Made by a program: the position numbers and the translations under genes. From a virus, in IMG/VR virus record IMGVR_UViG_3300045988_096557: a DNA stretch of 56,927 nucleotides, one strand, 5' to 3'. Below the pieces are notes generated by a model. The model was not told the origin of the DNA, searched no databases, and worked only from the letters and a program-made list of their open reading frames with translations. Position 1 is the stretch's first letter. Each line of letters opens with the position of its first letter. Below, piece after piece: positions 6,780 through 50,679 of this stretch.

Positions 6780-8681
6780 TACTCTTGTTAATACTTCCGT
6801 GGCTGTAATACTCATAGTTCCATTATATGAAAGAGGTAAAGTGAATTGAGTTATCTAATAATTTCCACTAAGTCCACTGTCTTTATCTTCAACATAAAGA
6901 ATATTATTTGGTTCCATATAATATTTTGGTAAACAAGTAATGGATATAGTTGTATTATAATTTAAATTCTAATACAACATTTCTCTAATTTTATCAAAAC
7001 AACTCGCATTTGTGGAGCTTATTGAAAATAAATTATAATACTCAGAAGTAAGAACAAAAAATCTCTAACCAATTCCTCTATATTCTGCTATCAAATCCTG
7101 GTCTAATCCTTCAATAAATATAATATCAGGAGCTTCTATATTATATACGGAAGTTATATCAGAACTATTAATTACTTTAGTCCTTCTACCTATCTCATTT
7201 ATTGAATATTTTCCAATTTCTGAACCGGTATCTATAAAATCTAGCCAATAGTTTAGATTTCCTGGATTATTAAATACATCTGGATTCCAATGATTATATT
7301 CATCCCATTTCTCATTTAGTGGATTATATAAATTGCGCCATTCGGCGATTAATTCAGAGTCATAGTAATTATCATATACACTATTTGTTACTTGTGCGTT
7401 TAATGCTCTACGATATAATTCCTCTCTCCACTCATCGCACGGAGATCCAACTAATTCTACTTCATATCCTGATATTGAATAATCAGAAGATATATTATTA
7501 AAATCATATCTTATAATTAATCCCGTCTCTTTATCACTCACAGCCCACATATAATATCCTGCTAAGTCAATTATTGGTTTGGTATCAATAGCAAGATGAT
7601 ACCTAATATCAACTTCTATTCCAGATGTAGTGGTTCTCTTTCCCCAAACATAAAAATCATTTTTTATATTATCAAACTTTGGACTGCGGGTTATGGCTGT
7701 AGTAGTATCAAGATCGGTTAAAGAGTATAAAAACTTAGCATTATTATAGCTCTTTACATAATTTTCTGGAGATAACTCTGTTAAAGGACTTCCAGTATTA
7801 AGATAATTCTTTATCTCCTAAAAGATAAAGCGACCATCTATATCATAAAAATACTCAAAATTTCCAAGAACTTCAACTATTTTATCTAATAGAGTAGTTA
7901 CAGTATCTCCAGCATCTAAAATTAATTCTCCCGGATAAGTAAATTCAGTTTCTCTATATCCAGCATCCTATCCATAACTTATCATATGAGGAAAATCAGC
8001 GCTTGGAGAAAAGTTCATACTTTCATAATTATTGCTAAAATATATGGGTTTATCTCCTATATATTTAACCAACATCTTACAAGTTTCTTCTATGTCAGTA
8101 ATAATAATATTTGTTATAGCCTCTCCGCCCCAATGGTTGACTGCTTCATATATAATTTGAAAGATAGTTGGATATACAATTTCTATATCTCCATCTTTTT
8201 TCTATATATAACTTTCATGAAAGGTTATAGAGCCTGGAAATGTCCCTCCTGCGGTTCCATCAAGTAAACACATTTTATCTTTTCCACTTATAGAGATTGT
8301 CCATCCAGAAGTGGATCTTGCTACCGATGCGTTAGATAAAACAAACAATCCACAAGGGAACCAAATTATGTCACCATAATTTGCATAAGATTTTAAGGGA
8401 TTATTATATCCAACAAAAACTTTAACCTTCTTATTTATTGAAATCTCATTATCTATATTTTCAATATCGCTATTATTCTCATTAGCTAACATAGTTAGGT
8501 TAATTGTTCTACGAACAGAGGACGATCCATTAACACTTAAACTACCAGCAGTTATGTTACCCTATATTTCTCTAATAGGTTTTTCATCAAAAGAAAGTAA
8601 AATAATTTTTGCGTAATGAGTTTTAATATTTAATTTATCAAGAGCTACAAGGAAATCCATATCATTTAAATAATCAAACAT
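6780..8681 (-). CDS. Tail tip protein with a prophage-tail endopeptidase-like N-domain (Tal-like), about 633 aa, with about 8 TAGs.
   Basis: ORFs 7065..7550 and 8202..8492 are in the same frame. The N-terminus LSFDEKPIREI.GNITAGSLSVNGSSSVRRT resembles the Sipho tail / Tal N-domain family. Overlapping ATGTTTGA junction with the upstream gene. Confidence 0.5.
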
Positions 8682-11463
8682 AATACTATTCCACCTTCAT
8701 GCGCATTTGATTTGTTAAACATTTATAATTTATTACACAAAACTAAGCACTTTCTAAAGCTATATATTTAACCATATTATCTAATGGATTAAGAGTATAC
8801 CTTCCAGTTGGACCAATCTTTATAATAGACGGATTACTTCCATCTGGACTAGAACTAATTAAAAGGGTAGTTCCTTCATCCGCCTCAATATCAAGTAAAA
8901 CAATATCACTAAAAGTATAATAAATCTCGCCATCTGTCAACTATCCATCATCATTTAACTCGAAATGAGTATTATATATAAGCTCAACTTGTTTCTATGT
9001 TTCTTCTTTTATTATCTCATAAATATTAATGGTTTTATATAGATTAAAGGTTGTATTATCAACAATAGTATCTCCCTATTTATCCTTGACTAAAAACTTT
9101 TCCATATTTGGTGGAACATTACTAAATATACGATAAGTTTCACTGTTTCTATAATCGTAATTATAGAATTTTAAAACTCCATCTGTACCAGTAAAAATTC
9201 CAGAAATCTATCCCCAAATGCGAGAAGCATCAATAGCAGAAACGACTCCAACAGAAACGTCCTCAACCTAATTCAACTAGCAAACATAGTTTACAACAAT
9301 AGGAACGCTAGACGCGGACAAAGATAAAGAATTTACATTTTCATTTAAATGATAAACTCTATTTGGAGCAACTAAAATTCTTGAACCATTAACATTAATT
9401 TCGATAGCTGCGGATTCAGGGCCATCAAGAGCGAGAATCAAATCTTTACATTCCTAAATCTGTCTATCATATTCAGAAGTATCCTCGTCATCTCCCGCGG
9501 CTTCAGATTTAAGAGCTTCTAATTCTAGTAATCGTGCAGTCAAATCTATTTTTGGATATTGCTCAATCTAAATATCTGTAACTTGAATTAAATTAAGTTT
9601 ATATCCTCCGCCTATACTAACCTCTTCCTGCTCTCTTATCTTCGCATATAAATCTATATTTCTACCATAAATTCCACTTAACTATCCGAAAGAATTTATT
9701 CTATCTTCGCTAGCCAAACTTTCAAATTTACCAATATTTATTATATTAACTTCATTTAAATTTTCTATGGTATTCTCTAAAACTTCATACGCAGTAGCAG
9801 AAAAGGAGTAAATCATGCGGCCGACCGTATTATTCGGAGTCAAAGATACATTCAGCAAGCCTATAATTATATTTCCTTCGGTAGAAGATTTAAAGAGCTT
9901 ATAATTAAAATCATTTAAAAATTCTTCCACTTTTTCTCTAAATATTCTTTCAATAAAAATATTATCATTTGTTAAACTAGTTGAGATAGATAATTTATTT
10001 TCATCTGTAGAAACTTCAGAATAAGTTTCCTACTTCTCTTGACATTTTCCTCTGGTTACATTGTTTTTAATAAATTTGTCTTTGGGAATTACTAATTCAT
10101 TATTGTAATAAAGTCCATCATCTTTTAAAGAGAAAAATGTCTAATCTTCATCCATCTAAAAACTTATTAATCCAGAAATTGGAAACTCTGCATAATAAGC
10201 CTTACCATTCTAAACCAAATGAGGATATTTACTTCCTAAGGTATCTTGTTTACTTCTTAAAGTAGTATGTTTAAAGCTGGATAATGTCTAATTAAGAGAT
10301 AACTTTAACTATATATTATCCCTATAAATATAGCTATATTGGAAATCAACACTTCTACCTTGGTTACTTGTATCATATACCTAAGAAGTCCGCAACCCTG
10401 CTGAATTTTCCTATTGTATGGCATATTTATATCTTATACCACTTTCAATAGCAAAATCAACATGAATAACTGAATCATTTAATACTTGATTAGAAAATTT
10501 AAGATATTTTAAATCTTCCCATATCTAATAATTACTTTTTTCAGAACTTCTTGTTATTACATAACTACCACTAAGTCCATTTTTAGCGGTACAAAATATT
10601 TTTATACAACCATTTTCTCGACAATATACATCATTATCTTCAACTCTAATAGATACTCCCTCTAAATCTCCCAAATAGGTCCTATTAACTGAAAAATTAT
10701 AAGGCTCTGATTCTCCTTCATATTCATTAATAGTAATAATAGAGTAGACTACTGTATAGCTTTTATTATTGGTTAACACGGTTTTAAATCTATAAGTATC
10801 GGTATTATTAATAGAACCATTGTGCTATAACCATCCAGATGTTTCAAGTAAATAATTAGGATCTTTAGAGGCTCCTTCATACAAATCAAATTTATATCTA
10901 TCCAATAATTCATTACTAGCAGAGCTAATATTAAAGCTTCCTATAAACAAAGGAGTAAGAGTTGCCTCTATTCTTTCAGTAGATATAACATCTTCTCGTT
11001 TAGCTTCATCGTTTTCTATTTTAATAATTGGTGTATCTATAGCCTTGATTATCATTACAGTAGACCATTCAGAAAAGGCTCCCGCATCTATCTGCTATTG
11101 TTTCCAAGTGGCAAATTCTGATAACGAAGTATACATTGGATTTATACCAAAACGCATTTGTACTTTGTATAAATAGCCTGGCTACCAAGATTCGGCTAAT
11201 TCGCTTCTATTAATTGATACAAAATATTGATTTCCTAAAGACCCTATCGCAGAAGGAGCTTTATAAATAGTTCCATCTGGATATTGGTCTGTATTTACAA
11301 TACTTTTATTATTAGACTAACGAACTAGCCGCACTTGTACATGACCTATGTCATTAAAAGACGTAATTGGCTATAGCGTAAAATTTATCTAATATACGTT
11401 CACGCTAGAAAGAAATGCTGGCTATGTACTCTACAAAGTAGGCGGATAAATACTAATTGGCAT
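8674..11463 (-). CDS. Large distal-tail (Dit-position) protein with FN3-like modules, about 929 aa, with about 30 TAGs.
   Basis: ORFs 8743..8940, 9682..9930, 10525..10779 and 10825..11055 are all in frame 1. Hand translation runs uninterrupted from ATG (ribosome-binding site AAAGGAGG) to TGA 8674-8676. Confidence 0.45.
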
Positions 11464-16633: not shown

Positions 16634-16668
16634 GGGATAATAGGGGAGGAAATCTCCCCTATTATCCC
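16634..16668. other. Stem-loop (GGGATAATAGGGGAG...TCCCCTATTATCCC) at the boundary between the tape measure protein (TMP) and the fibre gene.
   Basis: A perfect 14-bp inverted repeat. The TMP stop codon (16662-16664) lies inside it. Confidence 0.4.
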
Positions 16669-19600
16669 TTTCTTCTATTTGCCCATTGAGTAGCATCATC
16701 AGCTAAACTACGAATAGCATCTTGAATTTCATCAGAAGATGTCGCATTTGGGAACTCAACTCGCTCAATATTTATATACGGTTCAACTGTGTTGTCTGCT
16801 GGAGTAATCTAAGTATTAGATCCTAATCTTGATGCCATAAGATTAGAAATAGATAGTGCATTTCCATCAAGCGCTTTCTCTATAGAAGCTATAAAACTAG
16901 GTTCAAAAGCTCTTATAGCAGAAACCGCCGCGAGAATATTTTTCGTATCTTCTTGATTTAAAACTAACTCTTTTTCGTGTAAGAAAGCTAATTTAGCATT
17001 ATCAAATTCTCCAGTATAACCTCCTGTATCAAATCCGCTTATTTGACTTTCTTTTAACCAGCCATATGCAGAATTATTAGACTATACATGAATCGGATAT
17101 GGTCTGCCTTTAGCTATATTAGTTATTTTAACTTTCTTGCCGGGCCCACGTCTACCTGCTGGATCTGTGCCATAAGAATCATGATAATAAGTTCCACCAG
17201 TATAAATGACTTCGTCTCCTACTTCTGGGATTCCATTGCCACTTCCAGCTCCTCCGCTGGAAGATCCGCTATTACTATTGCTAGAGTTATTATCAGAAGA
17301 TTGATCTGAATTAGCAGGAGGTAAATCATCTTTATCTATTCCTCCAGCGCTTTCTATTGTATTTCCAGCTGCTCTAGCAGCCTCCTCAAGAGCTCTTATA
17401 TATTCTCTAACTGATTTAGCCATGTCTAAATATTCTTGACTTAAATCTTGAATAGTGCTTATCTATTCTAACATCTAAGTGACAGCTTCTGATCCCACAT
17501 CAGAACATAACTCTGTAGAAGTTGTAACATCATCAAGATAACCTTCTAAATCATCAAGACTTGTTCCAGTCTAATCTGCAACTCCAGAGACAGTAGTTTG
17601 ATAATCTTCCATCGCTCCGCTTGCTTCGTCCATGGCCTTAGATAGAAAATCTTCAAAATTTCCAGCATTAGAAGTCATATTAGCAAGATCTTTTGCGAAA
17701 ACATTATCAAATAAATCAATAAGTTTTGTATTACTTCCAACTATATCTTGAATCTATTCATTATCAGATAATAACAAATCAATAATACTAGAGCCAGAAT
17801 TAGCTATAATATCCTGAATTTCTTGACTTGTAATTCCAGTTAAGTCACTTACCTCGTCTCCCGCAACAATAGCCATATCAATTAAGGCTTTATTACCGGC
17901 TTCGGTCATATCCTAAATAGCGATCTATTTTTCGTTCTCTAGGTCTTTAACCTTCTGCGTATAATAAGAATAGATTTCTTGCGCGCGGGCAGATCTTTCC
18001 TCATCAGTCAAGGTCATATCAGAATAAATCTCTTTTATTTTATCCTGACATTCCTGCCAAGTAGAAATAATTTCTCCAGTAACATCTTCAACCTATTGTT
18101 TAGCTATATTATACCATTCATTCTCTGCATCAAGTAAATTCTATTCCGCATCTGCTATCTAGCTCGCATCTGCGGTGTATTGATAATTCCAGTTACCTTG
18201 ACTATCTCTTACTAATCTAAGTTGATTCTTTGCATTTTGAGCATCTTCAAGAGCCATCTAGGCCTAAAGAACATTATACTTGGCTTCAAGAATTTCTAGA
18301 TCATATTCAGATAGAGTATTATTCTCTCTACGAATATCAATTTCTTCTTGTAACTATTTCAACTAATCTTTCATTTTAGAATTAGTGGCTTTATCAATAT
18401 CCTATTGAAGTTTATTATACCAAGAAGATACTTCATATGCTTCATTTACTTTATCTAAATATCTATCTTCTTGCTCAATGTAATGATCGAACTTGTCTTG
18501 TAGCAAATCTAAGCCAACTCCGCCAGAAACCGCCTATCCAAATTCATATACGGCTCTTTCAATAGCCTAAGTATACATTTCTTGTGCAGTTTCCATAGCG
18601 GCTTGCGCGGAACTTAACATCGCCTATTGGGCTTCATTATATTCTTCTAATAATGCATCTCGATTAGCTTTTAAACCATCATATGCCGGATCTGTTTCAT
18701 CACCATCTAATGCATCTAACGCACTCTAGGCTTCTAAAAGTTCCTATTTAATACCGTCGTACCACTATTTATTTAACTGCGCATTTGCTATTTGAGCTTT
18801 CATTGTCTCTTCGCTTACTTTTTGGAGCTATTCAAATCCTTCTTCGGTTTTATATGTAACCCCCTAAAGTGTATACAATTCTTTTATAAGTCCAAGAACT
18901 GATTCATTATGATCAAGTTGATCAGTAAATTCAGCGAATCTTTCAGATGCAGCGTCTAATGCATCTGGCAACATTTCTTCAAGACCCTCTACCCAATCAA
19001 GTAGAGCTTCTGCGGTAGAAATTATTTTACCCTATAAATCAGATATTTTACTTATAATTCCATCAATATCAGTCGCATCCGTTGCGTTAGCCAATTCTTC
19101 TTGATAACTTTTAAGCGTTTCTTCATAATCCTTGATTATTTTTATATTTTCGTTCACACTATTTTCATCAATACGAGCGACTTCAATACCATGAGTTAAT
19201 TCATCACCAAATGATTCTGCAATCTTTTTAGTTAATTCACGAACAGCATCTTTAGCATCTTTTATTTCTATTACAACTTCAAGTTTATATTCAATCTAAC
19301 TCAATCTATTGTCTGCGATGCTTCTCTCTAGTTCTTCCTATTCGTCCTTTACTTCTTGAATTTTGTCAAGAGTTTCTTCATATTGGGCGAGAGCATCCTA
19401 ACGAGCTTGGAATAATTCATCAGCAGCTTCCTTTTGTAACTGCCAACTATCATATTCTGCCTATCTAGCTTCCTATTCATCTTTAGTAAGATTACTAAAG
19501 GCAACTAAAAAAGCATTATAATCCGCTAAGAAATTATTATTATAATCATCTATTATAGATTGAAGAACACTTTGATAACCTTCAATTTCTCCATTTTCAT

Positions 19601-22600
19601 CAAAAATAAGAGAATTATTAAACAACCCTTGAAGATCTGCCTAGTCTTTTGTAAGATAAGTTTCAGCTTCATTAAGTAGTTTGTTATAATTAGCTTGCTA
19701 TTTCTCTAATTCTTGAAGTTCTCTCTAGTATGCTTGAAGTTTATTGGCGCCATAGGCTCTATCTATATTATTTCCAATATCATCTAATAAATCGTTCTAA
19801 TTCTCAATTTCGCGAGTTATTTCATGGTATCTATCTTCAATATCCTTTAGAGTCTTTTCATCTTCTTCGTCATACTTAGTGCCTTCATTATCTCCGCCAC
19901 TTGAACTTCCCTTTACCCCTTCTATAGCTCCATCAATAGAATCTAATAATTTGCTCTAGGCTATTTTTGCTGCTGCTATAGCCTCATTATACCCATCAAT
20001 ACTCCCCTAATAAATGGCCCTTAGCGCTTCTCCAACTGCCTAAGATTGCTTAGCTTCAAGTGCCTCACTAGCATCACCATAAATATTTAAATCGTCTGCG
20101 GTTACAGGTTCTACATCTAAATTTGCAGTTAAAGAATTTAAGAAATCATTAGCGTTACTCGTATCTATTGTTGTTGCAGCCGAACTATCAAAAGAAACAG
20201 CAGAAGTATCAAAATCTTGCTTAGTAACATTATCAGTTCCTATTTGAGATACTTGAATTCCAGTAGCATATGCCGCATCTCTAATTTTTTCAAGATTAGC
20301 AAGAACATTTTGAGTATTTAACTATACATTAGTACTCATGTTCTGCGCGCCCTAAGCAGAATACTCGCTAACATTAGTCCATAAAGTCTACTAATTTGTA
20401 TCTTGTGCGGTTAAACTATTGACCTAATCATCTAACATTTCTCCATTAGCAAGATTCTAAGCATTTACATATCCCGCTAATAAAGTTCTCTTCTGCTCAT
20501 CTGATAATTCGTTTATAGTTAATTCTCCAGAAGCTAGCTGATCAGCGATCTTAAGCGAAGCTTCAGCCTCTCCTCGTTTAGCCTCTAAAAGAGAAATAAG
20601 ATTTTGAAGCATATTAGATTTGGTATCAGCATCAACAGCTAATTGCCCCTAAGAACTATTATAAAATGCTTGATACATCTCATCTGTTAAAGCAAATGTA
20701 CCATCCCTTAATAATTCCGCGTTAGCTATAAAACCTGGATAGATAGATTCAATAGCCTTAGCTGCTTCTCTACTAAAACTCCAAACTTGTTCTCCAGCTT
20801 CATTGGTAGTCTAGCTTACTCCATCAGAAATAGCATCGAATACACTTACAATTCCGTCAACGGAATTTTCAATCTAATCTAATTGATTCTAAAAATTTAA
20901 TTCTGCATTTATTTGTAACTAAGCTGTGCTAGAATCTATATCATCCTATAAACTACTAATTAGCTACTCTGCTAAAGTTACAGTATCAATTTTATCTTGA
21001 GCTTCTTTTGTCCCATACTCAAATGCACTAGCTACGTTATCCGCAGTTTCGGTTTTAAAAGATTCCCAATCAAAATTTTCACCTAACAAATCCCAATCAA
21101 TCGTATAATTATCAAGATTAAATTCTTCTCCGCCATTTAAGCTACCTTGATAATCATTATACGCTTCTCGAACTTGTTCCCAAGCATAAACAACTTTTTC
21201 TGCACGTTCTAATTCAGAATCGCTATATTGATTTAAAATATCCTATTGCTCAGTTATTCTCTTTTTTGCTTCACTAATCTAATCTATTAATCCATTATTG
21301 ACAGCCTAATAGGATTCATTTATAATCCTCTATAAATAACTCTATTGTTCAACTAAAGTCATAGCAAGGAACTAATTAAAATCAATAATTCCTTTTTCTT
21401 GATTTCCCCAATCAACAGTTTTAGAAAGTGATTCTAATCCTTCTCGATCTAAATCTCTATCTCCAAGAGTTTCTAAGGCAGATTGTGCAGTAGTTAAAGA
21501 TTCTGTTGCGTTTTCAACTTCGGAAATAGCATCAGTATATTTTTTAGCACTGTCATAGGCATCCTAAAAAGTCTCCTATGTTAAAGCACCCCAATTTAAT
21601 AAATTTAATACAGAAGTATCATAATTTTCATCTGTAAAAATAGATTCAAGATTACTTTTTAATTCTTCATCATTGACTAATTCTTCAACCTCTAAAATTG
21701 CGTCATAAATATCTTTAAAGCCACTAATATCAGGATTCAGAGAAGTAGATACTAAATCATTGATTATATCGTTTAATTCTTCGCCTTCATATCCAGCAGA
21801 AGTGAGCGCCTCTGTAACTTCGTTAACCCAAATTTTATACTACGCTAAACTTGATACTTGATCATCGGTAATAGTCTAATTATTAAACTCTCCAAGCTAT
21901 ACCCGAATAGCATTTATACTCTCTTTAGTTTCTTTATATTGAGTGACAACCTCTTCCATTTTATCTCGCCACTCAACAGCAGCATTGTAAAGTCCAGATG
22001 CTCCTCTTTCCGAAACAGTCATGCTATTATTCATCAAATTAATAGCATTATTTAATTGATCATAAAAATTAATTAATTCTTCTGTATTATTTGGGTCTAT
22101 AGAAAAAGCTAAGTTTCTTCTTCCGCCAATTACATTGTCATTCCAACTACTATATAAAGCGTCCACATTATTGAGAAGAATATTAGATGCAGTATCTTCT
22201 TCGGTGCCATTCCAAAAATCATTAAAACCAGTAAAAGACCCCTCATAATTTCCACCAAAATATACGTGGCCCACGCCCTCTCTCGCGGTTTCAAGAATGA
22301 GAGTTTCATTCGCACGTAACGCTTCTTCTTGGGACTACAAAGTTTCCTAAAGTTCTCTTCTTTGAGCTTCTTGAGCAGCTTTTAAAACACTATTATAATC
22401 TTCATACTATCCACTTAGTCTAGCTAATGCACTGCCTTCTAAATCATACGCTTCAGCCAACTAACGAGTTAAATCATCTAACTCTTCTTTTCCATCCCCA
22501 GTTTCTTGATAAGTAGATAAGGCATTTTGAGTAGATTGAATTAACTCTCTATTCGCTTGTGCTTCTTCTTTTTTTGCATTTGCCGCATCAATAGAGGCCT

Positions 22601-25388
22601 AAGCAGCAGCCAAGGTTGCTTCATGCTATGCTTTTATAGCACTTGTTATTGCAGTAATCGCTATTATTGCTACCATAATTGCAGCAGTTAAGATGCCGGA
22701 AGCCATAGCGGCTTTCTGCTTCGCCATAGCAAGCTATTCTGTCGCTAAAGCCTCTACTGATGTTGCCGCGGCGTCCGCCGCTGCTGCAACAGCATGAGCA
22801 GTAGTTAACATATTTAAAGTTTTATAAACAGAAATAATAGAGGGTAGTAACATACCAAGAGAAGTAAACAAAGCTACAATTCTTTCAGTTGAAGTCATAT
22901 CTTCATCAGAAAAAATTCTTCCAATGCTCTAAAAAGCATTCATAATCATAGTTAAACTAGAAAGAGAACTTCCAACCTAAACCAATATTGTAGCCCAATC
23001 TCTCGTTGGTATTAATGCTTTTGTAATTACACTAGGGAACTTCGCTAACAATTCCTAATATCGAGCCTCTTGTTCAGTTGTTCTTGCAGTAACAGACTCC
23101 AATTTTGTTAATTCATTAATATAAGAAGTAACTACTCTTGGATCGGCTCCCATAGTCTATAAAATAGTCCCAAGTTCACGAATTTGCAATTTTGCATTTT
23201 GAGACTAATTTTTTAACCCCTCTAATTGCTAAGTCAGCCATTCAATCTAAGCATAATTATGTTCTTTGCCCGTAACACTAGATAATAAATTACGAAGGCT
23301 GTCTCTAGTCGCAGTTCCAGCGCTTTCAAGTTTTTTAAATTCTTGATACACTGTATCAAGTTTTGTAGATTGCTAAATTAAACTAGTTAACTAAGTAGTA
23401 ACATCATTATAAATTTTATCAAGGTTACTATTAGCTCTTATATTTAACTAAATTTGATTACTTTTATTTCTACTATTAAATTTATTTATTTCTGCTTTAA
23501 CTTCTTCTTGCCAGCCATCTTTTATTCCTATATTAAAATAAATAGTATCTCTAAGATTTAATACATTTTCCCTAGACTAAATCTACTACTAAGAATATGT
23601 CTTTAACTAATCTTGCAAAATACTTAATTTTAACTGTTCTGTCTAAATTAATCTACGACCATTAGCATCCATCGCGTCGTAGTTACTATTTATTTGGCCC
23701 TATATATTAGCCTAGTCAACCATAATATTAAAAAGATTTTTTTCAGCCTAAGACATAGAGTTTGTTAAGCCTAATTGAGTTGCTATCTCAGCCGCTGATG
23801 CCTACAAATTTCTCGCTCTATTCTACTCTAATCCAGATAGAACTTTTATATTAGCCACCATAGAACGCATTGATTCAGCAATCTTATTTCCATAAATCCC
23901 ATTAATCAACAAAGCGGTACTAGCTAAAATACCATTTAACCCTCCCATTGCATCAATGGCGTCTGCAATACCAGATAAAAATGGAGTTAAGACATTATCT
24001 GCATTTATATACAAATCTGGATTTATGACACTATCATAAATATCCTCAGCAGATGCTTTTACTCTATCTCTAGCAGCTTCCCAAGATTCAGCATAAATAT
24101 CTGCCTGTTCCTAAAGAGATCCCTCTGCTCCATAAGCACTAGCTAAATTCTCCTAAAAGAAATCCCAATTATCCATAAGTGCAATAAGACGAGTATATTG
24201 GCGAACTCCGGCTACGGTCTAAGCCAAAGCAATCTACTAGTCATTAGATAAGGTCTCCCATTTTGAACCCATTTCATCAAGTAAGGTATCCATAGTTTTA
24301 ATCTCACCATTAACATCAAAAATATCAATACCCACTTTTTCAAGAGCTTTAGAATATTTATTTAATGTAATGCCATCATCGAGAGTTTCTCCAAGATTTA
24401 AGCCTTGGATACGAGCAAATAAAGTTCTAAATGCTGTACCTACTGTATTAGCAGACTCACGTGTCGTAGCAGTGACAGTAGCAAGAGCAGAAGCAGCATA
24501 TTCGTAACTTAATCCAACTGTATCTGCTACAGAGGCAAATTGTTGGATACCTTCTGAAATTTCATCAGAGCTAGACGCTGTATCGGCGCCTAAACGCACC
24601 ATTACATCAGCATAATATTCAAGACTCTTACTTCCATCATAGAAGTTGTTCCAAACTGCGGTCAGCTGATCCGAAGCGGTCTATGCACTAATTCCTGCGG
24701 CATTAGCCATTTTAATAGTAGTTTCAGTTCTATCTAAAACTTCCTATTCAGTAAGACCCTATTGATAATAAATCAAAGCAGCATCACTATATTCAACAGT
24801 AGTTGTACTTAATGCTTTTGCTGCTTCATTTGCCTATTGAGCAAATTTAGCCATGTCTTCCGCAGAATTTTCAGTAACTATACGAATATTTGTTAATGAT
24901 TCATTTAGATCTTGTGCATACCCATAAGCTGATTCTATGGTTCCCACAAAACTATTTAACGCGGTGGAGGTAATCTGCCATCTCATAGTATTTTTCATAG
25001 TAATCCATAACTAATCAAATATTTTGCCAGTGCGCAATGCTGGAAGCTCCGCTTTTTGAATCGCTGTTGCTACATTTAAAAAAGCCTTTTGCCCCTCGGT
25101 ACCAATCGAAATTAACGAGTTGGCATAATCTTTAAGAGTTCTTCCGCTAGATTTTAAACTATTTTCAAAAGCTACTAAATCTAACTTTCCAGTCCCTTGA
25201 TTAAATGCCTAATGCATATAAGTAGATAACTCTAGCGCAGACTAAGAAGCTTGTCGCAATTCTGCTGTAACTTTAGAACCGGCACTGATTTTATTTAAAG
25301 ATTGAACTGCCTCGTTTACTGCTCTGTAAAGTTCAGCAGTATCAACATCAAACCCAATCTAATAATTTAATCTTCTATTATTAGCCAC
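16662..25388 (-). CDS. Tail tape measure protein (TMP), about 2908 aa, with roughly 100 in-frame TAGs.
   Basis: ORFs 17082..17423, 21897..22274, 23823..24014 and 24237..24602 are all in frame 0. Hand translation shows no TAA or TGA across about 8.7 kb. The sequence is Ala/Gln/Glu/Leu-rich with coiled-coil character, and the C-terminus DTGGYTGEFDNAKLAFLHEKELVLN is typical of TMPs. GTG start with ribosome-binding site AAAGGAGGA. Confidence 0.6.
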
Positions 25389-25493
25389 AATCCTTTTCCT
25401 CCTTTATCACCCATAAAACAAATAAGGCTCTTGAGAATTATATCTCAAGAGCCTTTTAATTCTCTATCTAATTTGTAAATTATATTAGATTTA

Positions 25494-41824: not shown

Positions 41825-41853
41825 TTGATTAATTTATTTAAAAATGTTATAAT
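41825..41853 (+). promoter_or_regulatory. Sigma-70-like promoter: TTGATT, 17 bp, TATAAT.
   Basis: TTGATT 41825-41830, spacer 41831-41847, TATAAT 41848-41853. It is divergent from the late operon promoter. Confidence 0.55.
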
Positions 41854-41890: not shown

Positions 41891-42223
41891 ATGTTCTTTG
41901 ACGAACCATATTTAGATTTACCGAAAAAAGCATAGTATTATTTTAATATCTTAATAATCAGTATTGCTATATCTCCATAGTATGCTTAGGAAATCTTCCA
42001 AAATAAAGCAATAAGTTTATGGGATATTTAGGGAGTTAATGATCCTAGACCTATTGCTATTCATATATATACTTCTTACCATATTAATAAAGATTTTGAC
42101 TATGAAGTATAGTGTATTCCTCACTAGGTATTAGAAGTTAATGAAAATGAAATATCTTTCTATGAAATGATTGATTACGATACTAGTGACCCTTGGAGGC
42201 TTAATCCAGATGCAATAGATTAA
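41891..42223 (+). CDS. Hypothetical protein, 110 aa, with 6 in-frame TAGs.
   Basis: Ribosome-binding site AGGAGA plus ATG. There are 110 codons with no TAA or TGA in AT-rich DNA. It overlaps the FolD start. Confidence 0.45.
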
Positions 42224-42995
42224 TATAAAAGAATATTTTCAACAATAGGTAAACAAATTGCGGGAGATTAGTGGTAATGTTCCATCACTCATGATTATCG
42301 ACGCAACAGCCTAGGATCCCGCAAATCAAATTTATATTCGTAATAAAATAAAAGACTTTAATGCTCTTGGTTGGGAAGCAGAAGTGTTTAGAGCGAATAG
42401 TTCAGTAGAGTTAAGATTACTCTTAGGCCATGCGAAAGACTGGGATGCGGTAATAGTTCAAATGCCAGTAGCAAATGGAATTGATTTCAATTATAGTCAA
42501 ATACCTATCTCTAAAGATGCGGATGGTTTAAATCCTATGAGCAATATTACTCCAGCAACAGTAAGAGGAATTATAGACTATTTGGATGAATGTGGTTTTA
42601 ACTACGAAGGTAAATCTGCTGTTATTTTGGGAAGAAGCGATATTGTAGGAAAGCCAATGGCTAAAGCTCTACTGGATAGAAATATGACCGTATCAGTATG
42701 TCATAGCAAAACAGATATAAATACAAAACTCTATTTAACAAGGCAAGCAGATTTAATTGTCTCTGCGGTAGGAAAATTTAGCTTAACAAGAGAAGCCTGT
42801 CCTAACGCTATTGTTATAGATGTTGGTATTCGCAGAAATGAAGCAGGAATTATTCTTGGAGACTTTGTAGAAATTGATGAAATTGCAAAAAGAAATAATG
42901 TATGGTCAACTCCTGTCCCCGGAGGAGTAGGTCTATTAACAAGATTGGGGTTGATGAAAAATTGTTTATAGTTAGCGAAACAGGCGCAAAGATAA
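42210..42995 (+). CDS. folD: Bifunctional methylenetetrahydrofolate dehydrogenase/cyclohydrolase FolD, about 261 aa, with 4 in-frame TAGs.
   Basis: Motifs recalled from canonical FolD (not checked by computation): PANQIYIRNK (catalytic Lys region), GRSDIVGKPMAKALL, AIVIDVGIRR, TPVPGGVGLLT. The listed ORF 42384..42971 continues upstream across TAGs and downstream across TAG 42969 to TAA 42993. Ribosome-binding site GGAGG. Confidence 0.7.
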
Positions 42996-43348
42996 TGAAA
43001 TTTTCGGGAGATTTTGACAAATATGCTGAAGAAGTTCTTCATATTAACAATCCCTTTCGAAAATTTTATCATACACAAAGTCCTTCAGTATTTAAAACTA
43101 ACACCGATGGTATCATAACAATAGATATGGAAGAATCTCGAAAAATATATGAAGAAACAAAAGTAAATAGAGAAGAATGGATTAAATTAAGAGATAGATA
43201 TGTCGCAGAAAGAATACTGCGGGAACTTGGATATGAAGTTCTATTAACCTCGTCTTATTTTGAATACTATCCTGATGCTATTCCTTGTGAAGGAGCGTCA
43301 GGGCAATGCACAATAGACTGTAGAATGAATGGGTGTAAATATGAGTAA
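42995..43348 (+). CDS. Hypothetical Cys-rich protein, 117 aa.
   Basis: An ATG at 42995 overlaps the FolD stop (TAATG) and is in frame with the listed ORF 42902..43348. Confidence 0.5.
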   Translation: MKFSGDFDKYAEEVLHINNPFRKFYHTQSPSVFKTNTDGIITIDMEESRKIYEETKVNREEWIKLRDRYVAERILRELGYEVLLTSSYFEYYPDAIPCEGASGQCTIDCRMNGCKYE

Positions 43349-43349
43349 A

Positions 43350-43511
43350 ATGTGTCCTTGCATTGATTATTGTTATAATAGATTCGGTCGGTAGTACACA
43401 CCAGACTGCGACAATACTTGCGATTATGCAATTAAAGTTAAAGAAAATAAAATGCTTAAAGAATATTTAAAGAGATTAGCGGCGGAAACAAATAGTTTAC
43501 ACACTTTATTT
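43350..43511 (+). CDS. Small Cys-rich protein, 53 aa, with 1 TAG.
   Basis: The ATG lies 2 nt after the previous stop. It contains the Cys-rich segment CPCIDYCY and ends at TGA. Confidence 0.3.
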
Positions 43512-43572
43512 GAAGATTGGGATAATTAAATTATCCACTTCTGCCCAACCGCACGGAAGAAAGGAAACTGCA

Positions 43573-44340
43573 ATGAAACGAGAAGAGCTCAAACAACACG
43601 CGCAATCGCATTACGCAGACATTAAAGTGAGACTCAGGGAAGATACAGATCGCGCAATTATAAACTCTGAAATTTTTGGCCCCAATCTTCCTTTTCCGCA
43701 AAAACCGCGAGAAACCCACCATAATACCTTTTATCTTAAAGACCAAGATAGTGTATCCTGCCTATTCGGTTTAACCGATCGGAGCAAGACTGCGATCTTA
43801 AATTATGCAAGCTATAAACATCCAGGTGGTTATTTCCTTGGAGGTAGCTCTGCACAAGAAGAGGCATTGTGTCACGAAAGCAACCTTTATCCTATTCTTC
43901 TTGCTTTTGATGATACTTATTACGCATGGAATAGACAGAGACTGAATCGAGCCCTATATCTTGATAGAGCTATCTATACTCCTGATGTAGTCTTTGAAAA
44001 AGACGATAGTAGAAAATTAGCTGATGTAATTACTTGTGCTTCTCCTAATTATAGAACAGCACATACTTATCAGCAAGTTCCTCTTTCTCTAAACAATAGG
44101 ATAATGGAAGAGAGAATTAATTTTATGTATCGAATTGCCGAGGTTAAGGGAGTGGAAAATTTAATCGCGGGAGCCTGGGGCTGTGGTGTTTTTATGCAAG
44201 ATCCATCAACGGTCGCCACCTTGCTCGTAAACGCAGCCCGCAATTATAATATTCCAAATATCTATTTTGCGATTCCAAACCGCAATTCCCGCAATTTTAG
44301 AATTTTCTTGGAGGTTTTGGAAAAATGTTCAAGCAATTAA
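43573..44340 (+). CDS. Macro domain protein of the bacterial PARG-like / DUF2263 type, 255 aa.
   Basis: Signature HPGGYFLGGSSAQEE (the GGG-x6-8-QEE PARG motif) and a LIAGAWGCGVF block. Ribosome-binding site AGAAAGGAA, with an ATG at 43573 in frame with the listed ORF. Confidence 0.65.
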   Translation: MKREELKQHAQSHYADIKVRLREDTDRAIINSEIFGPNLPFPQKPRETHHNTFYLKDQDSVSCLFGLTDRSKTAILNYASYKHPGGYFLGGSSAQEEALCHESNLYPILLAFDDTYYAWNRQRLNRALYLDRAIYTPDVVFEKDDSRKLADVITCASPNYRTAHTYQQVPLSLNNRIMEERINFMYRIAEVKGVENLIAGAWGCGVFMQDPSTVATLLVNAARNYNIPNIYFAIPNRNSRNFRIFLEVLEKCSSN

Positions 44341-44762
44341 TTATTGCGAGGCGAGACTTAAATATGTCTCCAGGGAAACTTGCCGCACAAGTTTCCCATG
44401 CTTCTATTGCTTTTCTTTTGGAAAAGTTATATTGGGGAAGTAAAGAAGTTGTTAAAGAAAGAGACGGTCTTATGTATCATATAGGAATAAGCCTCGATAG
44501 AGACTTATTCCATAATTGGATAGCGGAAGCGGAGACCAAAGTAGTTTGTAGAGCGAAGAATAAGAATGATTTGTTAAAGGCTGTTAAGATAGCAGAAGAA
44601 TTAGGATGGGAAGAGAATAAGGATTATTGGCTTATCTATGATGCTTGTAGAACAGAGTTAGAACGCGAAGGCCCGGAAGGGACTTTGACGTGTATTGGAT
44701 TTAGGCCAATGGAGGCGGAAGAAATTGACAAAATTGGGAAGAAGTATCAGCTTTATAATTAA
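44325..44762 (+). CDS. pth2: Peptidyl-tRNA hydrolase, PTH2 family, 145 aa.
   Basis: Motifs RRDLNMSPGKLAAQVSHASIAF and a C-terminal CIGFRP...IDKIGKKYQLY match the PTH2/Bit1 signature. It overlaps the macro domain gene by 16 nt. Confidence 0.7.
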   Translation: MFKQLIIARRDLNMSPGKLAAQVSHASIAFLLEKLYWGSKEVVKERDGLMYHIGISLDRDLFHNWIAEAETKVVCRAKNKNDLLKAVKIAEELGWEENKDYWLIYDACRTELEREGPEGTLTCIGFRPMEAEEIDKIGKKYQLYN

Positions 44763-44967
44763 TATAGTTTTGATTTTACTATTGTTGACTGCTTGCGTGG
44801 AGGAGAACAATCGCTATCCAAGGCTAGAGTATATTCCTACAATGTGGAGATCTGATGCGATTAATATTAAACTAGAGGATGGATATATCTTAAAAGGATA
44901 TGAAACGATAGAAACTGAGGATGGATATAATTTGATTTTTAGTTTTGAGGCAACCGACGATGGATAA
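44695..44967 (+). CDS. Putative lipoprotein (lipobox LLTAC). The start is uncertain and it overlaps the pth2 3' end.
   Basis: A hydrophobic signal peptide followed by Cys. Confidence 0.35.
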   Translation: MDLGQWRRKKLTKLGRSISFIINIVLILLLLTACVEENNRYPRLEYIPTMWRSDAINIKLEDGYILKGYETIETEDGYNLIFSFEATDDG

Positions 44968-45103
44968 AGTATTAGTATGGTTTGACGGCAAGCATTATTA
45001 TAATATATGCGCAGTCTGTGGAGAATTATATCCAATTTACAAAGTAGAAGATCATATTATATATAATTTAAAAAAGAAGTGTAAATGCGGAGAGAAGAAG
45101 TGA
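44957..45103 (+). CDS. Small zinc-ribbon protein (CxxC...CxC), 48 aa.
   Basis: ATGGATAAAG overlaps the previous stop. It has two Cys pairs and ends at TGA 45101-45103. Confidence 0.3.
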   Translation, partial: TMDKVLVWFDGKHYYNICAVCGELYPIYKVEDHIIYNLKKKCKCGEKK

Positions 45104-45125
45104 GTTCTTCTCTCTTTTCGTTATT
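45091..45125 (+). terminator. Rho-independent terminator candidate.
   Basis: AGAGAAGAA...TTCTTCTCT stem followed by a T-rich tract. Confidence 0.4.
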
Positions 45126-48095: not shown

Positions 48096-48329
48096 ATGCA
48101 AGAAACTACTTTCTCTCGCAAATTAGATTCAAGTGGTAGAATTATGATTCCGATTCGCTTGCGTGAACAAATGGGACTTACTTCCGGTTAGGAATACTAT
48201 TTTACTACTATGGTAAAAGATGGTAGAAAATATATCTGTATTGACTGCGGATCGGTTGATTCCTCGCTTGAAGAAGCTATGAAAATTATCCAAGCAAACG
48301 GATTAAAGATTGTTGAAAATGCCGATTGA
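48096..48329 (+). CDS. Small AbrB/SpoVT-N swapped-hairpin domain protein, 77 aa, with 1 in-frame TAG (48189).
   Basis: SRKLDSSGRIMIPIRLREQMGL matches the AbrB N-domain and is paralogous to the N-terminus of the protein encoded at 49554..50015. Confidence 0.45.
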
Positions 48330-49553: not shown

Positions 49554-50015
49554 ATGAAAGCTACTGGAATTGTGCGCCGTATTGATGATTTGGGCCGGAT
49601 AGTAATTCCAAAGGAAATCCGTAGAAACCTTCATATTAGAGAAGGCGACCCATTAGAGATTTTTCTTGAAGAAGATGGCGGCGTAGTTTTTAAGAAATAT
49701 TCTATAATGGGAGAATTTTCCTCTTACGCTAAACAAATGCAAAATGCCCTTTCATCTAACGGAATCGCCGCGGCTATTTTTGACAATGATGGAATTTTAT
49801 GCGGGCCGCGTTCCTTTGGAATTACAAGAGTTCCCGATGACTGGATTGATATTCGCAGTTCGGCGACAAAATGGGAAAGTATGTTTATTACACCAATTCT
49901 TGTGAATGGCGACCAGGTTGGTTTTATTTGCTATAAAAATAGCAATAACGAAGAATCTGTCCATGACATGGTTAAACTTTCTGCAAGATTTCTTGCAAAT
50001 ATATGTGAAAGTTAA
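49554..50015 (+). CDS. SpoVT/AbrB-family transcriptional regulator (AbrB N-domain plus a GAF-like C-domain), 153 aa.
   Basis: The N-terminus GIVRRIDDLGRIVIPKEIRRNLHIREGDPLEIF is a near-canonical SpoVT/AbrB swapped-hairpin domain. The overall length and a C-terminal domain of about 100 aa resemble SpoVT. Confidence 0.6.
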   Translation: MKATGIVRRIDDLGRIVIPKEIRRNLHIREGDPLEIFLEEDGGVVFKKYSIMGEFSSYAKQMQNALSSNGIAAAIFDNDGILCGPRSFGITRVPDDWIDIRSSATKWESMFITPILVNGDQVGFICYKNSNNEESVHDMVKLSARFLANICES

Positions 50016-50214: not shown

Positions 50215-50679
50215 ATGAAAAAGATGCTCTGCTTTGATATGGATGGAACAATCGCTGACCTGTACGGCGTGGATGATTGGTTAAAAGATTTAATGAATGA
50301 AAATCCCTATCCATATACAGTCGCCAAACCTCTTTGCGATATAGAAGAATTGAATACCGTTCTTAATAAACTCATTGAGCAGGGCTGGGAAATTCGGGTT
50401 ATCAGTTGGCTTGCAAAAGACAGTTCTAACTCATATAAAACTGCTGTTCGTGACGCAAAGCGCATTTGGCTTGCAAAATACAACTTCCCCGCACATAAAG
50501 TCCACCTTGTGGAATATGGCACAACAAAAGCAAATTGTGTGCGGAAACACTTTGAGCCGGGAATTAGCAATTTCATTTTGATTGATGATAATAAAAGTGT
50601 GCGGGATGGCTGGCATTTAGGGGAAACAATCGAGCCACATGAAGATTTACCTACGGCCTTATGGCGACTGGTAGAGTAA
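50215..50679 (+). CDS. HAD-superfamily 5'(3')-deoxyribonucleotidase-like hydrolase, 154 aa.
   Basis: N-terminal HAD motif I CFDMDGTIADL, and an LIDD motif near the C-terminus. Confidence 0.55.
   Translation: MKKMLCFDMDGTIADLYGVDDWLKDLMNENPYPYTVAKPLCDIEELNTVLNKLIEQGWEIRVISWLAKDSSNSYKTAVRDAKRIWLAKYNFPAHKVHLVEYGTTKANCVRKHFEPGISNFILIDDNKSVRDGWHLGETIEPHEDLPTALWRLVE

Follow-up and report, generated by a model that had tools for sequence, protein, structure and literature searches.

A phage-borne PARG-type macrodomain gene overlapping a PTH2 peptidyl-tRNA hydrolase gene: candidate repair or counter-defence enzymes for the translation apparatus

The viral sequence IMGVR_UViG_3300045988_096557 from IMG/VR, 56,927 nucleotides long and called here the window (the whole stretch that was analysed), carries on its plus strand two overlapping genes, one for a macrodomain of the bacterial PARG type and the other for a peptidyl-tRNA hydrolase of the PTH2 family. 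The window is phage DNA, encoding a virion structural protein (phrog_2729 match). An earlier note, made from the sequence without database searches, had described the pair as a candidate anti-defence or translation-rescue module. The pair comprises the following features.

43573..44340, plus strand: gene for a bacterial-type PARG (DUF2263/TIGR02452) macrodomain, open reading frame (ORF) A, ATG to TAA, 255 amino acids (aa)
44325..44762, plus strand: gene for a divergent PTH2-family peptidyl-tRNA hydrolase, ORF B, ATG to TAA, 145 aa
44325..44340, plus strand: overlap of the PARG and PTH2 genes, 16 nt, read from the sequence
44310..44314, plus strand: GGAGG, a putative Shine-Dalgarno-like site for PTH2, 10 nt 5' of its ATG and inside the PARG gene
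about 43561-43565, plus strand: AAGGA, a Shine-Dalgarno-like site 5' of the PARG ATG

The overlap has exactly the length given in the earlier note. PTH2 starts inside the PARG gene and has its own GGAGG site, so the two genes are likely to be co-transcribed, near the end of a putative early operon of about 41.9-45.1 kb, and their translation may or may not be strictly coupled.

The hidden Markov models, the QEE motif and the fold agree that ORF A is a bacterial-type PARG. Its scores lie well above the family cut-offs (PF10021 PARG_cat_microb, E 3.5e-26, 92.8 bits, cut-off 23.5; TIGR02452, E 3.6e-49, 167.7 bits, cut-off 50), no PHROG family was matched, and its best phmmer matches in the PDB are the Deinococcus radiodurans and T. 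curvata PARGs (E 1e-24 to 1e-21). The PARG signature is GGG-X6-8-QEE, with catalytic glutamates (PMC8120803). The motif quoted in the earlier note, HPGGYFLGGSSAQEE, corresponds to aa 83-97 of ORF A and reads G85-G86-Y87, seven residues, and Q95-E96-E97; the spacing is canonical, and the third glycine is replaced by a tyrosine at a position that varies in the clade (Y/F/M/L/G/N). All 15 homologues aligned, with identities as low as 41%, keep Q95-E96-E97, which aligns to the QEE of the D. radiodurans PARG. A GAWGCGVF loop (residues 200-207) is likewise invariant in the 15 homologues, except that W202 is a phenylalanine in two of them, and it aligns to the GAWGCGVF of 5zdb; we take this glycine-rich loop to be the macrodomain diphosphate-binding loop. 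The AlphaFold2 model (predicted local distance difference test score, pLDDT, 89) proposes a macrodomain fold with an N-terminal helical extension. By Foldseek, this model matches 3sig, 3sih and 5zdb with E values of 1e-16 to 1e-18 and template-modelling (TM) scores of 0.78-0.83, whereas ordinary macrodomains match it far more weakly (E of about 1e-6 versus about 1e-17). Family membership (Pfam/NCBIfam), a fold similarity at a TM score of about 0.8, the QEE motif and the GAWGCGVF loop are therefore all shared with the T. curvata PARG, D. radiodurans DRB0099 and Streptomyces coelicolor SCO0909. Unlike the solved bacterial PARGs, the enzyme of the window is phage-encoded, has only 23-29% identity to them and carries the tyrosine mentioned above. 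Among intact orthologues, the ratio of nonsynonymous to synonymous substitution rates (dN/dS) is 0.06-0.22, which indicates purifying selection. Judged from these alignments and models, PARG looks catalytically competent, and both enzymes of the pair are intact and probably active.

ORF B is a PTH2 by family, fold and aligned active-site residues alike. It matches phrog_1866 and exceeds the cut-off of PF01981 (E 1.4e-22, 80.5 bits, cut-off 23), but falls under the NCBIfam equivalog cut-offs for archaeal Pth2 (NF003314, 82.7 versus 126; TIGR00283, 65.5 versus 82). We therefore regard it as a divergent member of the family rather than as an archaeal equivalog. The motif that had suggested the assignment, DLNMSPGKLAAQVSHAS, corresponds to aa 11-27, and the C terminus reads GFRPMEAEEIDKIGKKYQLYN. 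K18, D106 and T110, invariant in 15 homologues, align with K18, D86 and T90 of Sulfolobus solfataricus Pth2 (1xty), which were reportedly identified as active-site residues of that enzyme by Fromant et al. in 2005. The AlphaFold2 model (pLDDT 86) shows the four-stranded alpha/beta PTH2 fold; Foldseek matches it to 1rlk, 3erj, 1xty, 1wn2 and 1q7s (E 5e-9 to 5e-7, target-normalised TM 0.77-0.82), archaeal and human PTH2 being included among these structures. Both predicted folds are thus those expected, and the catalytic residues are present in both proteins. With a dN/dS of 0.03-0.12 among intact orthologues, PTH2 is also under purifying selection and, from its sequence and model, looks catalytically competent.

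The phage enzyme shares its Pfam family, fold and K/D/T residues with archaeal and eukaryotic PTH2 (S. solfataricus Pth2, human PTRH2/Bit1), but it is longer, at 145 aa versus 115-120 aa, owing to a variable insertion after helix 1. In the window protein, this insertion forms a beta-hairpin of about 20 aa (about residues 33-55; hairpin at 39-53 in the model). It is hypervariable, from about 20 to about 75 aa, and reaches its greatest length in 198-aa relatives found in integrase-bearing elements. Moreover, the DAG motif of archaeal PTH2 reads DAC throughout the window clade, placing a cysteine beside the catalytic aspartate. The insertion and the glycine-to-cysteine change may alter contacts with the substrate or the ribosome. 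The rarity of phage-encoded PTH2 is borne out by its frequency, 33 of 50,697 GenBank phage records. Such enzymes are nevertheless not new: PTH2 has been described in jumbo phages, for which Iyer et al. proposed in 2021 the rescue of ribosomes jammed by cleaved tRNAs (PMC7824862). The PTH2 of the window and that of the jumbo phages would share this proposed role, tRNA recycling from jammed ribosomes, although the phage studied here, with a genome of roughly 100-150 kb, is not a jumbo phage like those of that study.

The same pair occurs in five IMG/VR contigs of 98-164 kb, and the window matches IMGVR_UViG_3300045988_091188. A FolD-like gene upstream is the conserved anchor of the locus, with synteny in 23 viral loci, and its surroundings show several arrangements (identities are those of PARG to the window PARG).

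L020/L021, downstream of FolD: PARG then PTH2 with the same 16-nt overlap; 65%
L022, downstream of FolD: PARG, a 2-nt gap, then a 198-aa PTH2; 52%
L023, downstream of FolD: PTH2, two small genes, then PARG (inverted order); 44%
L024/L025, downstream of FolD: AAA_28, PARG and DUF5662, without PTH2; 45%
L016, downstream of FolD: PTH2 only

Among 22 informative FolD-anchored loci, 11 carry both genes, 9 carry PTH2 only and 2 carry PARG only, in these cases upstream of FolD. PARG lies at most 1.3 kb away in 10 of 80 viral PTH2 loci, namely 9 of the 18 FolD-lineage loci and L096, which belongs to an unrelated and more GC-rich viral contig. Outside the FolD lineage, 60 of 62 PTH2 loci have no PARG within 10 kb, the others being L096 (1.2 kb) and L104 (8 kb). 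Conversely, PTH2 lies at most 1 kb away in 8 of 79 viral PARG loci, all of them from the window's broad phage group, and 69 of the 79 have no PTH2 within 10 kb. Two near-identical contigs of about 148 kb, from Oscillospiraceae and Eubacterium bins, carry the pair among 54 loci from bacterial and archaeal genomes; this set also includes L290, where PARG, PTH2 and DUF488 stand in a row (45%/43% identity). In L096 (2322-5602), the row consists of PARG, a 218-aa protein, a 343-aa PTH2 protein and Metallophos, and the 343-aa protein may be a fusion of an N-terminal domain to PTH2. A Butyrivibrio metagenome-assembled genome (L281, 3475-11250) has a 206-aa PTH2 directly followed by a Thg1 tRNA-His guanylyltransferase, an integrase and a distant PARG. 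The flanks of L281 hold AAA_15/AAA_21 (Abi-like ATPase) and DUF3226/OLD-TOPRIM-like genes, and the locus resembles an integrative element inside a defence island.

These distributions bear on the idea of an obligate two-step module, in which both enzymes would act in sequence on one damaged molecule, for instance a tRNA ADP-ribosylated on a ribose hydroxyl and trapped as peptidyl-tRNA, and each would be of no use by itself. Adjacency is indeed kept despite divergence to 43-52% identity (L022, L290), the 16-nt overlap at 65% PARG identity, and linkage in the inverted order (L023/L032); the row of genes in L096 lies on an unrelated contig; the PTH2 of Xanthomonas phage XacN1 has a phosphoesterase, a YbiA-like protein and a Nudix gene within 3-4 kb; and PARG and PTH2 have been eroded together in three genomes. 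Nevertheless, PARG is missing from most PTH2 loci outside the lineage, as is PTH2 from most PARG loci, within the lineage 9 loci hold PTH2 alone and 2 PARG alone, PARG is broken beside an intact PTH2 in L027, L037 and L038, and the joint erosion takes in neighbouring small genes, so that it may reflect a dispensable cassette rather than interdependence of the enzymes. We consider an obligate module unlikely. Linkage survives divergence and rearrangement, with three arrangements in the lineage in addition to L290 and L096, but the two genes do not co-occur wherever either is found. Since single-gene loci are common, the linkage is not general and each gene functions without the other. What stands of the proposed module is therefore a real adjacency, old and rearrangement-proof within one broad Clostridia-associated phage group, and not a general rule.

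In the window, a run of closely spaced plus-strand genes begins at a divergent junction with the late genes, and the pair is located towards the end of it. Besides the pair, this run includes the following features.

41825..41853, plus strand: promoter-like site, TTGATT, 17-nt spacer, TATAAT, extended -10, predicted by consensus scan
41891-42223, plus strand: hyp110, first gene after the divergent junction with the late genes
42210..42995, plus strand: FolD-like methylene-tetrahydrofolate dehydrogenase/cyclohydrolase (PF02882, E 3.2e-38)
42995-43348, plus strand: hyp117
43329-43529, plus strand: Cys-rich 66-aa ORF (Cys66)
44695..44967, plus strand: small lipoprotein-like ORF with a signal peptide and the lipobox LLLTAC, taken from the ORF list
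44960..45103, plus strand: 47-aa Cys-rich zinc-ribbon-like ORF, last gene of the cassette
45089..45115, plus strand: terminator-like hairpin, 11-bp stem then T run, closing the putative operon, predicted by consensus scan

The promoter-like site is in the divergent intergenic region, 5' of hyp110-FolD-hyp117-Cys66-PARG-PTH2. The start of the lipoprotein-like ORF is uncertain (TTG at 44695, 44725 or 44734) and, depending on the start chosen, the ORF shares the final 41-68 nt of the PTH2 gene, read in a different frame. L037 has a homologous ORF after its PTH2, and in L016 and L023 the end of PTH2 is overlapped by short genes. Pfam gave matches for only three of ten neighbouring genes: FolD, a SpoVT/AbrB-like regulator and a reverse transcriptase.

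Comparisons of close relatives indicate that this end of the run is readily lost. In three genomes with 95-99.8% identity to intact relatives, 10-15 separate deletions of 2-542 bp are confined to the cassette. Relative to L189, L188 has lost 2-207 bp at each of 15 places from the PARG start to the terminator region (7365-8801, L189 coordinates), against one further insertion or deletion (indel) and 20 substitutions across 12.8 kb. In L188, deletions stand to substitutions as 15 to 3, well beyond neutral decay, and the seven junctions inspected show microhomology of 2-9 nt. L196, compared with L206 (inverted arrangement), has about 15 deletions from PTH2 through PARG (7194-8592, L206 coordinates) and none in the 7.2 kb upstream. 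L323, which comes from a different study, lacks 9-153 bp of the window sequence at each of 10 places and carries one insertion of 134 bp, all between 43754 and 45026, with only 1-2 bp indels in the flanks. The lipoprotein-like ORF has been eroded with the pair in L323, and deletions reach into the 47-aa zinc-ribbon ORF in both L188 and L323. Since the deletions are confined to the cassette in otherwise near-identical genomes, its genes share one fate: the stretch running from PARG to the zinc-ribbon ORF can be dispensed with and disappears as a unit. The indel excess in L188 could stem from selection for loss, from CRISPR-escape deletions in DNA that is not essential or from an assembly artefact. 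We also considered the eroded alleles as proof of functional interdependence and rejected this, because adjacent small genes are deleted too.

Such decay could also be taken to mean that PARG and PTH2 are functionless passengers, left over from horizontal acquisition. Copies that are broken or have suffered heavy deletion are numerous (L011/L188, L027, L037, L038, L134, where both genes are dead, L196 and L323), and many database proteins are eroded alleles, one of them without the QEE motif. However, the intact copies have dN/dS values of 0.03-0.22, the catalytic residues of PARG and PTH2 are invariant down to 41-56% identity, and the gene overlap and the Shine-Dalgarno site are conserved, which leaves the passenger reading very improbable.

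A counter-defence or tRNA/translation-rescue role seems the most reasonable reading of the cassette. More specifically, we propose, with about an even chance of being right, that the pair consists of two related enzymes, separable from each other, that serve the translation apparatus in repair or counter-defence; we infer both the substrates and the counter-defence role. PARG would remove ADP-ribose that host ADP-ribosyltransferase toxins place on nucleic acids, its likeliest targets being ADP-ribose linked to the ribose 2'-OH or to the 5'-phosphate of tRNA and other RNAs. PTH2 would cleave the ester bond of peptidyl-tRNA or N-acyl-aminoacyl-tRNA and return the tRNA to the pool; these substrates would build up when damaged tRNA, stalled ribosomes or acetylating toxins sabotage translation. 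The two enzymes would act in parallel on the same process, keeping the RNAs of translation usable, rather than as an obligate two-step system, and the cassette would be conditionally useful and readily lost.

Several published observations are consistent with such roles. Bacterial-type (DUF2263) PARGs were the sole hydrolase type tested that reversed the RNA 2'-OH ADP-ribosylation by RhsP2, a bond chemically identical to that of poly(ADP-ribose); they protected cells from this toxin and also strip ADP-ribose from RNA and DNA 5'-phosphate ends (Lu et al. 2025, PMC11833690). The published activities of these enzymes, on poly(ADP-ribose), RNA 2'-OH ADP-ribose and 5'-phosphate ADP-ribose, fit a repair role. 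The D. radiodurans PARG gene is part of a ligase-PARG-HD/polynucleotide-kinase operon (PMC11833690), whereas the neighbours of the window PARG are PTH2 and small phage genes. As for peptidyl-tRNA hydrolases, bacterial Pth detoxifies TacT-acetylated aminoacyl-tRNA (PMC9241777). In other phages, genes of RNA metabolism adjoin relatives of both enzymes. Within 3 kb of 71 other viral PARG loci, we found Metallophos phosphoesterases at 11 and RNA_ligase PF09414, above the Pfam cut-off, at 7; two further groups fall below Pfam cut-offs, a second RNA-ligase-like one at 8 loci and an RlaP/nucleotidyltransferase-like one at 10. At twelve PTH2 loci of another phage group, an AAA_33 kinase whose HD-domain match is borderline lies nearby, in Clostridioides phage phiCD211 PTH2 is 1.1 kb away from a gene annotated as tRNA splicing ligase, and the YbiA-like protein near the XacN1 PTH2 belongs to the NADAR family (PMC11833690).

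A number of observations weigh against this proposal. The neighbours used in the argument belong to other phage lineages, and of the four neighbour families of PARG, two do not reach the Pfam cut-offs. In the window itself, Pfam revealed no ADP-ribosyltransferase, RNA ligase or clear polynucleotide kinase among the ten neighbours of the pair, the sole kinase candidate in the window being a weak HAD/Pnk-like match at 50215-50679 on the plus strand. The below-equivalog score of PTH2 and the glycine-to-cysteine change of its clade suggest that it may not have the same specificity as archaeal Pth2. The promoter and the terminator were recognized only by their consensus, and the host assignment is based on metagenome bins and on the SpoVT-like regulator. 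Finally, we know of no ADP-ribosyltransferase defence in the presumed hosts, a point on which no search was made.

The pair can be compared with phage tRNA and RNA repair toolkits (Pnkp with RNA ligase, RtcB, Thg1, CCA-adding enzymes), which keep tRNAs usable under attack, and PTH2 and PARG relatives adjoin such toolkit genes in other phages. Unlike in these toolkits, no ligase or kinase adjoins the window pair, and the kit consists of an ADP-ribose-removing enzyme and a peptidyl-tRNA hydrolase. A bolder version of the proposal, which we regard as unlikely, is that the cassette would be a dedicated tRNA de-blocking system against an undiscovered, RhsP2-like defence that ADP-ribosylates RNA 2'-OH groups in gut Clostridia. 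If so, PARG would free the ribose hydroxyls of tRNA from ADP-ribose, the insertion-bearing PTH2 would clear peptidyl-tRNAs that remain on, or have left, ribosomes stalled by modified tRNAs, and the deletion-riddled alleles would mark phage populations replicating in hosts that lack the defence or in hosts that sense both proteins.

Two other activities may be considered for PARG. The earlier note had suggested that the macrodomain counters DarT-like toxins, reversing the ADP-ribosylation of phage DNA. A macrodomain fold is compatible in principle with DarT reversal, and phages are reported to carry orphan ADP-ribosylhydrolases of the NADAR type or antitoxin-like that neutralise DarTG1 (PMC11825919); like these, the window PARG would be a stand-alone hydrolase undoing a host modification. 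It belongs, however, to another family and would probably act on RNA ribose or phosphate ends rather than on DNA bases. Indeed, the removal of the thymidine and guanosine modifications made by DarT is assigned to macrodomains of the DarG/TARG1 type and to NADAR rather than to PARG-type enzymes (PMC11833690), and ORF A falls clearly in the PARG clade, given the much weaker structural matches of other macrodomains. DarT is thus not borne out as a target, and we give this reading very little credence. The processing of ADP-ribose-1''-phosphate, raised in the same note, is among the known activities of macrodomains (PMC9503650).

Alternatively, PARG could destroy soluble ADP-ribose derivatives rather than RNA adducts, for instance an immune signal that contains a ribose-ribose O-glycosidic bond, such as the Thoeris signal 1''-2' glycocyclic ADP-ribose (gcADPR), and PTH2 would then be unrelated. 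PARG chemistry is the cleavage of a 1''-2' ribose-ribose bond (PMC11833690), and Iyer et al. suggested that phage macrodomains may favour soluble ADP-ribose derivatives (PMC9503650). In related loci, a YpsA-like SLOG domain, DUF488 or an AAA_28 protein stands beside PARG, and the homologue P0202 is a PARG-YAcAr/SLOG fusion. Against this, a role on soluble signals is without experimental precedent, our literature search returned no paper naming both gcADPR and PARG, and the RNA-ligase and phosphoesterase neighbourhoods, together with the D. radiodurans operon, point to nucleic-acid repair. We therefore rate this possibility as quite improbable, if somewhat less so than DarT reversal.

Each gene is a divergent phage-borne member of a known family, and the two-gene linkage is lineage-restricted. 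Our literature search found no description of a phage-borne PARG of the bacterial type, and a survey of NAD and ADP-ribose metabolism in viruses mentions neither PARG nor PTH (PMC9503650). Phage PTH2 has so far been noted by comparative genomics only, and the reversal of RNA ADP-ribosylation by bacterial-type PARGs was shown only in 2025. The lineage described here offers a compact natural test case, comprising the intact pair, genes standing alone and recently eroded alleles in near-identical genomes. Such a lineage could reveal whether gut Firmicutes use RNA ADP-ribosylation against phages and whether phages answer with PARG.

The window also belongs to a phage that reads TAG as a sense codon, as the earlier note had stated. 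ORFs of 150 aa or more add up to 5,780 aa in the standard reading but to 18,496 aa with TAG as sense, which also turns a minus-strand block at 3.4-41.8 kb into large genes. TAG is used most heavily in the window by a 2,913-aa ORF on the minus strand (16662-25403), with 102 in-frame TAG (3.5% of its codons). No tRNA or tmRNA genes were found in the window, and a suppressor tRNA was thus not seen there. TAG makes up 2.7% of codons in the late genes, and hyp110, FolD and the Cys-rich 66-aa ORF contain 6, 4 and 1 in-frame TAG, respectively. PARG and PTH2, by contrast, have none in 400 codons (P of about 2e-5 under late-gene usage), so both are producible under the standard code of the host. From PARG to about 54 kb, a single TAG occurs among 16 predicted genes checked, and the GC content rises from about 0.30 to 0.38-0.56. 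This shift beginning at PARG points to an early block in the standard code or to DNA acquired recently. As the opening gene of the TAG-poor block (43573 to about 54 kb), PARG would have early-gene character, an expression timing that we infer from codon usage.

In this context, the earlier note had proposed that PTH2 is adapted to the recoding, recycling tRNAs from ribosomes that abort at TAG while RF1 and the suppressor compete. Of the 22 informative loci of the TAG-recoded lineage, 20 have PTH2; being TAG-free, the gene could be expressed ahead of suppression; and the relative in L265 has an in-frame TAG at codon 4 of PTH2 and is hence translated under the recoded regime. However, homologues with 28-37% identity occur in cultured phages whose deposited gene annotation is ordinary (Clostridioides phiCD211, Enterococcus H1, Xanthomonas XacN1, Sinorhizobium phiM12), and others, at 43% identity, occur in integrase-bearing elements. 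No recoding signal was seen within 10 kb at 52 of 70 viral PTH2 loci, by a crude score that considers ORFs only from 200 aa upwards in this 10-kb range and wrongly calls some AT-rich loci TGA-recoded. Furthermore, Lak phages, which are presumably TAG-recoded, contain a PARG relative yet yielded no PTH2 match, near-identical recoded genomes have lost PTH2, and our literature search found no paper joining "stop codon recoding", "bacteriophage" and "peptidyl-tRNA hydrolase". The relatives in ordinarily annotated phages, the TAG-free genes, the gene losses and the Lak phages weaken this tempting link, which is unsupported and which we consider quite improbable, even though nearly all loci of this recoded lineage have PTH2.

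Further observations concern the surroundings of PTH2 and the remainder of the window. Folate enzymes recur near PTH2: L208 has a distant FolD (38% identity) 750 nt away from it, and in Enterococcus phage H1 (L321) DHFR directly precedes it and FolD follows 1.3 kb after. This proximity probably reflects shared placement in early operons. The FolD/DHFR neighbours had also led us to consider PTH2 as a host shut-off factor hydrolysing fMet-tRNA, a candidate that was rejected because the substrate claim could not be confirmed and the phage itself needs initiation.

Metagenomic binning places relatives of the phage with gut Clostridia (Oscillospiraceae, Eubacterium, Lachnospiraceae). The plus strand encodes two AbrB/MazE-type DNA-binding proteins (48096-48329 and 49554-50015); the C-terminal SpoVT domain of one of them is a hint of a Bacillota host. 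The HAD-like protein at 50215-50679 has weak PHROG matches to polynucleotide kinase/phosphatase and 5'-deoxyribonucleotidase families. A nucleotide search of the 42-47 kb region against GenBank phages gave no match. At the other end of the window, a plus-strand gene at 1067-2284 encodes a reverse transcriptase (PF00078 RVT_1, E 4.6e-17) with a YMDD motif and 3 in-frame TAG; it is flanked by TAG-containing ORFs (133-627 and 2284-2946) and may be part of a diversity-generating retroelement.

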